A stretch of 59,390 nucleotides of DNA, counting the filler, from Bonamia ostreae (taxonomy: Eukaryota): NCBI GenBank assembly GCA_040357525.1. It is 6 parts of 6 records of this genome, joined end to end, with 100 filler letters (N's around TTAATTAATTAA, not from the genome) between each part and the next. Parts side by side here need not be neighbours in the genome. Positions count along the whole stretch, not along the records: positions 20,249 to 30,066 come from JBDODL010000036.1; 5 more parts are not named here. One strand, written 5' to 3'. Under the pieces are notes generated by a model. That model searched no databases, was not told the origin of the DNA, and saw only the letters and a program-made list of their open reading frames with translations. How positions within the stretch are numbered: the stretch's first letter is position 1; the number at the start of each line of letters is the position of its first letter. Of this stretch, positions 20,332-23,089 are shown in pieces. The position numbers were made by a program, and so were the translations under genes.

Positions 20332-23089
20332 ATGGCAGATCCAAATTCTTCGAGCCAGAACACAAGCACCCAAAACCAAGCAGCCAGCCAATTGGACCCG
20401 ACGCAACAGCCGGCCAACTCGGAAATCGTCATCACCGGCAAAAAGCGGAAGAGGAGGCAAGCCGTCTCCCGAGTAGTAGACCAGGTCGCCGAGCAGGTCA
20501 AAAGGGAGTTCTTCCAGTTCCTGGACTCTTTCTCCTCAGGAGAATCAGAGGAGACCGCGTTCTTCGTGGAACGAGCCGCGGCAATGGCGCAAAACATGAC
20601 CACTACTTTCGAAGTCTCCATAGAAGATCTGATGATGTACAACCAAGAACTGGCGGTGGCGTTGATCGAGGAGTACTCGCGCTTTGAACCGGTGGTCGTG
20701 GAGGCAGTCCGCGACTTTGTGCGGAAACACTTCCCGGCGCACCTTCGGATGGACGACTCCGAAAAAGAGAAGACGCTGTTCGTCTCCTTCACCGGAATCG
20801 CCAGCGTGCGCAGGTTATTTCAAACTAAACTTGCAGAATAAGGGGACTCGCCACGAAGCAACTCGGACAACTGATTTCGATCACGGGGACCGTGACGAGG
20901 ACGTCGGAAGTGTGCCCGGAGCTCCTCCTCGGCGGCTTCACGTGCAAGCAGTGCGCGGCCATTCTCTCCAACGTCGAGCAGCAATACGTGTACACGGAAG
21001 TTGCTTTTCTCACGATTAGCCGACGACGTGCTCCAACTCGAACTGCGACAACAGGACGAGCTGGGCGCTGGAAATGACCGAGTCCTTCTTCACCGACTGG
21101 CAGCGCGTGCGCCTGCAGGAAAACGCAGACGAAATCCCGCCCGGCTCCGTGCCGCGCCACATCGACGCCATCCTCCGCAACGAGCAGGTCGAGAAGGTGA
21201 AGCCTGGCGACAAATGCGTTTTCACGGGCGCCCTCGTCGTGGTCCCGGACATCGGGCAGATCCGCGGAGGCGTGGAGGCGTCTCGCGCGGGGAACAGGAA
21301 GCCCGACCCCAACTACCAGGGCGTGCTGGGGCTGAAGCAACTCGGGGTGCGCGCCCTCTCCTACAAACTCGCCTTCGTCGCCAACAACGTCGAGCCCTCT
21401 ACAACAAAACTCGGCGCGCCGCGCGGCGAACAGAGCGGGGGCGGTTCCGCGCGCGAGTCCGTCTTGGAAGGACTCAGCGCGGAGGAGAAACACGAGCTCC
21501 TGGCAATGTCAGAGACTCCCAACATATACGAGCGCCTGGCCGCGAGCATCGCGCCTGACGTATTCGGTTTCCTTCTTAACGCTCTGCAATGAAGGCCACG
21601 ACGAAGTGAAGAAGGGCGTTCTTCTGATGCTGCTGGGAGGAGTGAACAAGACCACCTTCGACGGGATAAAGCTGCGCGGAGACGTGAACGTGTGCATCGT
21701 GGGCGACCCGAGCACGGCGAAGAGTCAGTTCCTCAAGTTCGTGTGCTCCTTCTTGCCTCGCTCCATCTACACTTCGGGGAAGGCCTCCAGCGCCGCAGGG
21801 CTGACCGCGTCCGTGGCCAAAGACCCGGAAACCGGGGAGTTCGGGATCGAGGCGGGCGCTTTGATGCTCGCGGACAACGTTTCTAGCTTAACGTTCCAGG
21901 GCACCTGCTGCATCGACGAGTTCGACAAGATGGACCCACGCGACCAAGCCGCGATCCACGAAGCGATGGAGCAACAGACCATCTCGATAACGAAGGCTGG
22001 CATCAGCGTTTGCTACTAATTCCCAGGCCACCCTCAACGCGCGCGCCTCCATCCTCGCCGCGGCGAACCCCGTTTTCGGGCGCTACGACCTCTCGCGCCC
22101 GCTGAAGGTTCTTGAGATAATTCTGCAGGATAACATCGACATCAGCGCCGCGATAATGTCGCGCTTCGACCTCTTCTTCGTGGTGACCGACACGTGCGAC
22201 GACGACTCGGACTACGGGATGGCGCGCCACATCCTCGCGCGGCACCGGGGCGCCCCCGCCGCCCTCTCGGCGCCCTACGGCCCGGCCGCGCTCGCGAACT
22301 ACATCCGCTACGCGCGCTCGATCCGCCCCGCCTTCCCCTCCGCGGCCATGAAGCTCGTCGTGCAGAGCTACTGCGCGCTGCGCCAGTCGGACAGCGGCGG
22401 CGCGAAGGCGGCCTACAGGATAACGGTGCGCCAGCTGGAGTCGCTCATCAGGCTCTCGGAGGCCTTGGCCCGGGCCGAGCTGAAGGACAAGGTTGCTAAC
22501 GCTATCGAAGGTGCTGGAGAAGCATGTCCGCGAGGCGGCGAGGCTGCTGCGCAAGTCGATCATCCCGGTGCGTTCCGAAGACGTGGAGCTGGGCGAGGGC
22601 GCCGGCGCCATCTCCACGAGCGGTTTTGTTTTCACGCAAAGTGGCAAGGCGCTCGCTGTCCTTCGAGCAGTTCGCGAAGATCTCGAATCTGCTGGTCCAC
22701 CACATCCGGCGAGAGGAGAAACTGGCCACAGGTTGGATTACCCAAATCAAGAGTGGAGAGGGATCTCCGAGCAGGAGCTGGTGGAGTGGTACCTGGAGCA
22801 CAAAACGGACTCGGGCGATCTGGGCGGGGAGGACGCGGTCTCGGAGGCGCTGGAGACCGCCAGGTTGTCTACTTAACGCTGCAGAGCCGTTGTCGACAGG
22901 CTGATCAAAGTGGAAAACTTGTTGATAGTGTTGGAAGAACCGAACTTGGTGAACGAGGACAACCGCGGGGAAAGAGTGATCGACGTGCACCCGAACTACG
23001 ACCCCGACACGAATGAAAGTTTTGGGTTGAAGCAGTCCCAAAACGAAGCGAAGGAAGACGAAGCAGTGGATGGAACAGTCGAAGAATAA
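20332..23089 (+). CDS. MCM6: DNA replication licensing factor MCM6, 11 exons
   Basis: [89 protein letters not shown]; removing ten 19-28 nt introns gives one open frame to TAA at 23089. Confidence 0.97.

Follow-up and report, generated by a model that had tools for sequence, protein, structure and literature searches.

Among the closest described counterparts of the introns considered here, which lie in the MCM6 gene and four further genes of a 59,390-nt stretch (the window) of the genome of Bonamia ostreae (assembly GCA_040357525.1), are those of the mikrocytids Mikrocytos mackini and Paramikrocytos canceri. B. ostreae is a haplosporidian oyster parasite (Haplosporida, Ascetosporea, Rhizaria) and the mikrocytids belong to the same class; according to the text of PMC10245619 they have 224 introns in 179 genes, each of 16 nt (217) or 17 nt (7), and a much reduced spliceosome of 17-19 proteins for which only the U2, U4 and U6 small nuclear RNAs (snRNAs) have been identified. 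The same text cites introns of 18-21 nt for chlorarachniophyte nucleomorphs, with more than 800 of them in about 300 genes, and of 15-16 nt for heterotrich ciliates (PMC10245619). Myxozoan and dicyemid introns have medians of about 22 bp, and the tiny introns of Stentor and of the myxozoans are reported to coexist with conserved U2 and U2AF (text of PMC13644364). For Ascetosporea in general, a 2026 paper describes, in the sections consulted, intron numbers and sizes as drastically reduced (PMC13746701). The genome paper on B. ostreae itself says in its text that the species 'carries canonical introns' and gives averages of 2 introns per mRNA and 658 bp of coding length (PMC11069148); no intron length is given in the text examined and the word 'intron' is absent from four of its text supplements. 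Neither 'intron' nor 'splic' occurs in the transcriptome paper (PMC9329632), and the literature searched yielded no account of ultra-short introns in Bonamia or any other haplosporidian, with figures, some supplements and subscription journals lying outside that search.

Like those of the mikrocytids, the introns in the window are extremely short spliceosomal introns in the nuclear genome of an ascetosporean parasite that uses the standard code (PMC10245619, main text); the sequence-only reading of this DNA had counted some ascetosporeans among the few lineages with introns of this size, and B. ostreae does belong there. They differ in that mikrocytid introns, as far as that text describes them, are fixed at 16-17 nt and highly uniform in sequence, whereas those of Bonamia span 18-36 nt, are variable in sequence except at three short signals, positions 4-11 being among the variable ones, and occur at about 4 per kb. 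The intron size range and the high number per gene resemble those cited for chlorarachniophyte nucleomorphs, but a nucleomorph is the relic of an algal nucleus, its genome tiny and compact, whereas the genome of Bonamia is of the host-type nuclear kind and has long AT-rich stretches between its genes. Ciliates (Paramecium, mean 25 nt; Stentor, 15-16 nt) also have many ultra-short GT..AG introns with no room for a polypyrimidine tract, as reported in the text of 10.1101/2021.08.05.455221 and PMC10245619, although these ciliates are free-living and not parasites. Dicyemids and myxozoans, parasites as well, have introns of 20-27 bp in which the A residues ahead of the AG are weakly conserved and the polypyrimidine tract is missing or very short; the A residues lie farther from the AG as length grows (PMC13644364, text). 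The same tendency is seen in Bonamia, where the A is fixed relative to the 5' end. Unlike Bonamia, dicyemids and myxozoans are animals, and a GTT donor is not mentioned for them in the text of that paper. Tiny introns are known in other lineages, the related mikrocytids included, and the GTT donor is the one unusual trait here.

We hold with high confidence that the segments described below are genuine GT..AG spliceosomal introns of the B. ostreae nuclear genome, shrunk to about 18-36 nt (median 21) and still numerous (about 4 per kb of coding sequence). The set analysed comprises 21 introns in five genes of this one window (Table 1), and removal of the segments restores continuous conserved coding sequence in MCM6, RAE1, RecQ, TRM61 and a diphthamide-synthesis gene. 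In MCM6 the ten segments (19-28 nt) lie exactly where the sequence-only reading had placed them, every one with GTT at its start and AG at its end, and their removal leaves a single open frame of 848 amino acids with no internal stop. Exon 3 (182 residues) matched 80 proteins at E <= 0.001 among 3652 candidates in a protein search; the best match was P0001, which bears the NCBI name MCM6 of B. ostreae (531 residues, 100% identical), and the remaining named matches were MCM6 of diverse eukaryotes. This match and that of RAE1 to P0081 (below) identify the window as nuclear DNA of B. ostreae. Nearer than any named species is P0002, an MCM6 of 788 residues with 60% identity over exon 3, which is probably from another haplosporidian. 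When the spliced protein was aligned with 13 homologs, the comparison with P0002, the closest relative, was gap-free at nine of the ten junctions, several of which cross invariant helicase motifs. A Pfam scan of the exons one at a time gave, in order, MCM_N, MCM_OB, MCM P-loop, MCM_lid and MCM6_C (the MCM6 C-terminal winged-helix), which makes the product a member of MCM6. The profiles run on from exon to exon, MCM_OB with positions 2-45 in exon 2 and 51-125 in exon 3, and MCM P-loop with positions 29-122, 123-157, 159-183 and 186-224 in successive exons; MCM_lid and two pieces of MCM6_C were found in later exons, both MCM6_C hits falling under the curated cut-off because each exon holds only part of the domain.

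The stronger claim, that MCM6 gives one continuous frame only if all ten introns are removed, goes slightly too far. The spliced frame is continuous, but the frame is also open with 21879-21899 and 22108-22128 kept, and it does not by itself demand the removal of these two because both are in frame (21 nt) and stop-free; three of the ten MCM6 introns are multiples of three, all of 21 nt, and these are the two without an in-frame stop. Their removal rests on homology and on Pfam continuity, the MCM P-loop profile passing from 122 to 123 and from 183 to 186 over the two junctions, and at the first of them (intron 4) the conserved Walker B region is closed gap-free. The choice of boundaries was compared with chance by taking all frame-restoring, stop-free cuts within ±9 nt of each MCM6 junction (70-117 cuts per junction). 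Among the 238 dinucleotide pairs found at these cuts only GT..AG fits all ten junctions, and the runner-up, TT..GC with nine, is the same signal shifted by one base; in a trinucleotide version GTT..AG fits ten of ten and the next best six. Homology, Pfam continuity, this control and the RNA described below, four independent lines, agree, so that the proposal of real, densely packed GT..AG introns in a nuclear gene is borne out.

RAE1/Gle2, a WD40 gene that is 100% identical to P0081 ('RNA export factor gle2' of B. ostreae, NCBI name), has the four introns of 18-20 nt that had been proposed for it, and the introns per coding length are 10 in 2547 nt for MCM6 and four in 993 nt for RAE1. With RAE1 introns b and c taken out, a WD40 repeat is recovered that can be aligned with three full-length homologs, in a region where P0081 reads unrelated out-of-frame sequence; at intron d homology is ambiguous and the intron is shown by RNA (a contig of run X1). 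Use of the standard code, also part of the sequence-only reading, is supported in that TAA closes both MCM6 and RAE1 and their 848 + 330 spliced codons contain no TAA, TAG or TGA in frame. Among the ciliates mentioned above, Paramecium uses a variant genetic code. Seven more introns, in RecQ, a helicase gene upstream of MCM6 (four), TRM61/GCD14 (two) and the diphthamide-synthesis gene (one), bring the total to 21. A first junction in the diphthamide gene (about 12375-12529) was not placeable without homologs and was left out of the 21; on the minus strand this interval of about 154 nt accounts for only about 29 Pfam profile positions, and at least two more short introns probably lie in it. No frame-breaking intron was found in eIF4E, in the M76 peptidase or in the first 413 codons of RecQ, and intron density is uneven because these long frames are uninterrupted.

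The mean length of the 21 introns is 22.0 nt, and the range of 18-28 nt given at first proves too narrow, one RecQ intron being 36 nt long. GT at the start and AG at the end are found in all 21, with T as third base in 19 and A in two, so the introns depart from GTRAGT, the customary donor consensus, which is a tendency and no absolute requirement. The base preceding the AG is never G (C 8, A 8, T 5). An A stands at position 13 from the 5' end in 15 introns and at position 12 in 11; 11 of the 21 contain TNAY placed so that its A falls at position 12-13, usually 7-8 nt before the 3' end, as do seven of the 10 in MCM6, which agrees with the earlier statement that many of the introns contain a branch-like motif. 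The distance from the donor to the presumed branch A is constant and longer introns add sequence after the A. There is no room for a polypyrimidine tract, which the sequence-only reading had described as lacking in many of the introns. GC is 0.38 in the introns vs 0.60 in the MCM6 gene. Seven introns are multiples of three and 14 are not; in the 18 for which phase was assigned, nine are phase 0, five phase 1 and four phase 2, and four are in frame and stop-free. With these proportions no depletion of in-frame stop-free introns is visible in this small sample. A strict form of the motif is found seven times in sense and never in antisense in MCM6 (shuffles give 0.34 and 0 of 500 reach seven), an asymmetry that is a matter of internal consistency and no independent proof because the motif was derived from the same introns; the strict motif is too weak to find introns without homology. 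A longest-frame gene builder restricted to GTT..AG was rejected, as it produced a 1890-nt chain with six false introns on the MCM6 antisense strand and skipped in-frame introns.

For the RNA comparison, contigs of runs X1-X4 were placed on 20249-26200 and the results come from 12 of the 481 placed records. X2 is on record as an RNA-Seq library; X1 was labelled RNA by guess, and a poly(A) run in one contig supports the label. In X1, 0.73 of the sampled words of the MCM6 gene are present and 473 contigs were placed on the interval. Direct RNA support was obtained for two of the 21 introns (MCM6 intron 1 and RAE1 intron d) and indirect support for two more. An X1 contig over 24486-24937 has a T-run at 24486, which is poly(A) for a minus-strand gene, and skips exactly 18 letters at 24840, that is, RAE1 intron d; two X1 contigs run to 20813 and then carry eight letters identical to the start of exon 2 at 20837, on the other side of MCM6 intron 1. 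At least two introns are missing from polyadenylated RNA. The indirect support comes from an X1 contig that stops exactly at 22622, the last base before MCM6 intron 8, and from a 79-nt X1 contig (20970-21048) in which MCM6 intron 2 is unspliced and flanked by 30 + 29 bases; on our reading the size of the latter fits the unspliced branch of a split in the assembly graph, so that a second, spliced path exists. X2 gave one contig, stopping at the edge of RAE1 intron d, X3 gave three low-depth contigs and X4 none, and on this interval nothing in X2, X3 or X4 was informative on the MCM6 introns. The 3' untranslated regions look very short: poly(A) begins 14 nt past the RAE1 stop, and RNA cover of MCM6 drops about 11 nt past the stop at 23089, where an X1 contig (about 23100) has 30 unmatched letters.

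Table 1. Genes, introns and RNA end mapped in the window (positions count along the whole 59,390 nt; ATG and stop positions are given in the direction of the gene)
Feature	Position	Strand	Length (nt)	Phase	Remarks
MCM6 gene	20332..23089	+			11 exons; ATG 20332, TAA 23087-23089; 848 codons after splicing
MCM6 intron 1	20814..20836	+	23	2	gap-free alignment; RNA contigs; used in P0001
MCM6 intron 2	21000..21019	+	20	0	gap-free alignment; MCM_OB 2-45 then 51-125; used in P0001
MCM6 intron 3	21567..21594	+	28	1	gap-free alignment; in-frame stop if kept; used in P0001
MCM6 intron 4	21879..21899	+	21	0	in frame, stop-free; used in P0001
MCM6 intron 5	22008..22026	+	19	0	gap-free alignment; MCM profile 157 to 159; missed by P0001
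MCM6 intron 6	22108..22128	+	21	0	in frame, stop-free; gap-free alignment; MCM profile 183 to 186
MCM6 intron 7	22492..22510	+	19	0	gap-free alignment; 28-nt GT..AG alternative
MCM6 intron 8	22623..22641	+	19	1	needed by frame change; sole GT..AG solution within ±9 nt
MCM6 intron 9	22732..22751	+	20	1	gap-free against P0002; 29-nt alternative
MCM6 intron 10	22864..22884	+	21	2	gap-free alignment; in-frame stop if kept; 18-nt alternative
RAE1/Gle2 gene (WD40)	24500..25569	-			ATG 25569, stop 24502-24500; 330 codons after splicing
RAE1 intron a	25337..25356	-	20	0	in-frame stop if kept; sole RAE1 intron used in P0081
RAE1 intron b	25234..25252	-	19	0	missed by P0081; unspliced in X3 contig 25141-25291
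RAE1 intron c	25116..25135	-	20	2	in-frame stop if kept; missed by P0081
RAE1 intron d	24840..24857	-	18	2	in frame, stop-free; six residues in P0081
Poly(A) addition site of RAE1 mRNA	24486	-			14 nt past stop; loose T-runs before 24486 in X1 and X2
RecQ intron	19026..19046	+	21		GTA start; tblastn frame change between homolog matches; in-frame stop if kept
RecQ intron	19078..19102	+	25		tblastn frame change
RecQ intron	19219..19240	+	22		tblastn frame change
RecQ intron	19389..19424	+	36		GTT..AG; in frame, stop-free; 12-residue insertion in conserved helicase motif against three homologs
TRM61/GCD14 intron	45679..45702	+	24		holds stop separating TrmI-like_N frame from GCD14 frame
TRM61/GCD14 intron	45917..45936	+	20		GTAAGA donor; frame change in GCD14 profile just past SAM-binding motif
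Diphthamide-synthesis gene intron	12143..12167	-	25		Pfam Diphthamide_syn 219 to 222 over frame change

Several observations tell against the conclusion that these are genuine, correctly delimited introns, or limit its reach. The sample is small, five genes in one window, and direct RNA evidence covers two of its 21 introns and comes from a run whose RNA label was a guess; the unspliced intron 2 present in that run could be pre-mRNA or carry-over of DNA. At four of the ten MCM6 junctions (1, 7, 9 and 10) a second GT..AG cut, of 29, 28, 29 and 18 nt respectively, also keeps the frame; junction 1 is settled by RNA, and junctions 7, 9 and 10 rest on the gap-free alignment. Junction 8 falls within an acidic linker that varies in length, and there the 13 homologs are silent. 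The branch point is placed by sequence position, and 10 of the 21 introns have no TNAY at 12-13. The strict motif is not enriched window-wide (55 vs 80.3 ± 8.9 in 200 block shuffles); the AT-rich spacers give chance matches. Chaining of open frames cannot separate GT..AG from control pairs: joining across the window, a trial that was set aside for its want of discrimination, gave 337 candidates for GT..AG vs 298 to 3131 for eleven control pairs.

Removal of these introns would proceed by ordinary two-step splicing with intron definition, using three signals within about 20 nt. The 5' site would be GTT instead of GTA or GTG; the branch adenosine, placed by its position, would lie at a distance of 12-13 nt from the 5' end and often form part of TNAY; and an HAG acceptor would mostly follow 6-8 nt past the branch A, which leaves no space for a polypyrimidine tract. 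Length would then vary mainly between branch and acceptor, and the lower limit on length may be set by the donor-to-branch distance, as has been proposed for other tiny-intron lineages.

Among the alternatives, the one that survives best accepts the introns as real and supposes, as the sequence-only reading did from their small size, that the machinery is substantially altered, with a U1 whose 5' end has changed or with U1-independent recognition of the 5' site, tied to the GTT donor; we regard this as possible, though unlikely. A purine at donor +3 is the rule in most eukaryotes and the GTT donor, with T at this position in 19 of the 21, is for that reason the sole feature that hints at changed recognition of the 5' site. 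The short distance from the 5' end to the branch A, only 12-13 nt, points the same way. Against it, the two introns that begin with GTA (one of them GTAAGA) indicate that a conventional donor is accepted too. Loss of splicing genes, moreover, is enriched on the branch of Paramyxida + Mikrocytida, which excludes B. ostreae, and the introns of this species are called canonical (PMC11069148, text), while Stentor and the myxozoans are described in the text of PMC13644364 as keeping conserved U2 + U2AF despite introns of 15-27 nt; the mikrocytids, with their much reduced spliceosome, are a published case on the other side. A further proposal, doubtful as it stands, is that haplosporidians have a miniature-intron class of their own, defined by the GTT donor (19 of 21) and a branch A fixed 12-13 nt from the 5' end, which would be read by co-evolved U1/U6 or without U1, and that miniaturisation predates the split between haplosporidians and mikrocytids. 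If this were true, Bonamia would keep an intron-rich intermediate stage on the way to the mikrocytid state of 16-17-nt introns, few introns and a reduced spliceosome.

It is very improbable that the segments are assembly or sequencing errors, or that the genes are decaying pseudogenes, and that the appearance of introns is accidental. The assembly is scaffolded and contains gaps (N runs), and the published B. ostreae assembly is, by Table 1 of its paper, highly fragmented with an N50 of 1417 bp (PMC11069148). Errors, however, would not all have GTT..AG-type bounds, nor would they all be 18-36 nt long; the public record contains the same sequence, since P0001 continues for three codons inside intron 5, and run X3 covers RAE1 intron b unspliced. 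RNA contigs are abundant on MCM6 and RAE1, one of them with poly(A), and the conserved motifs are intact once the segments are removed.

The shortest ciliate eliminated sequences overlap these introns in size and four of the introns are in frame and stop-free, but DNA-level elimination of the ciliate internal-eliminated-sequence type, or skipping during translation, in place of RNA splicing is barely credible, as all 21 boundaries are GT..AG and not TA..TA, 14 of 21 lengths are not multiples of three and several segments carry stops, the segments are present in assembled DNA (one of them in X3 as well), the organism is a rhizarian and not a ciliate, and a skip in a polyadenylated RNA contig beside another intron left unspliced in the same run is what RNA processing predicts.

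The setting of these genes is uneven in composition. MCM6 (20301-23100) is a GC-rich island (GC 0.60) in an AT-rich window in which most 2-kb bins have 0.24-0.36, and GC varies strongly from gene to gene, with 0.41-0.51 in the other genes and 0.24-0.36 in the spacers. AT-rich tandem repeats with periods of 26-85 nt occupy parts of the long intergenic spacers (1696-1889, 3783-3881, 5179-5516, 44831-45093, 51303-51393, 51575-51751 and 52643-52779). Pairs of N runs, each run 44 bases long, return at intervals of about 10 kb (10026-10125, 20149-20248, 30067-30166, 39966-40065 and 49701-49800) and have more the look of masking than of assembly gaps; other N runs, with 100 and 10 bases (5316-5415, 8503-8512, 51394-51493 and 53490-53499), look like scaffold gaps. 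Scans of the window for Rfam families and for tRNAs gave no match and no snRNA gene.

Taking the segments as genuine spliceosomal introns, the public gene models can be compared with the spliced genes. P0001 equals the spliced MCM6 at residues 1-528, using introns 1-4 (23, 20, 28 and 21 nt), then continues for three codons inside intron 5 (19 nt) before it stops; at 531 residues vs 848 it lacks 320, those of the lid and winged-helix domains among them. P0081 has 349 residues vs 330 for the spliced RAE1, since only the first intron is used and the 18-nt intron is kept as six residues. The exon between its 19-nt and 20-nt introns is read out of frame, as a stretch of 45 residues, and the frame returns afterwards because 19 + 20 = 39 nt. 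All of the 18-19-nt introns of MCM6 and RAE1 are missed by the public models, together with one of the four 20-nt introns, a pattern suggesting that some part of the annotation pipeline sets a minimum length of about 20 nt.

The gene models of a notifiable oyster pathogen are thus corrupted where introns are 18-20 nt long, and any tally of genes, introns or losses that relies on this annotation may be biased. Beside the mikrocytids, Bonamia adds an intron-rich lineage to the few that have introns near the physical minimum, and for this reason the order of events, shrinkage first and loss of introns and spliceosome components afterwards, becomes testable within one class of parasites. The GTT donor, for its part, offers a natural test of how the 5' splice site is recognised with the branch site just a dozen bases from it.

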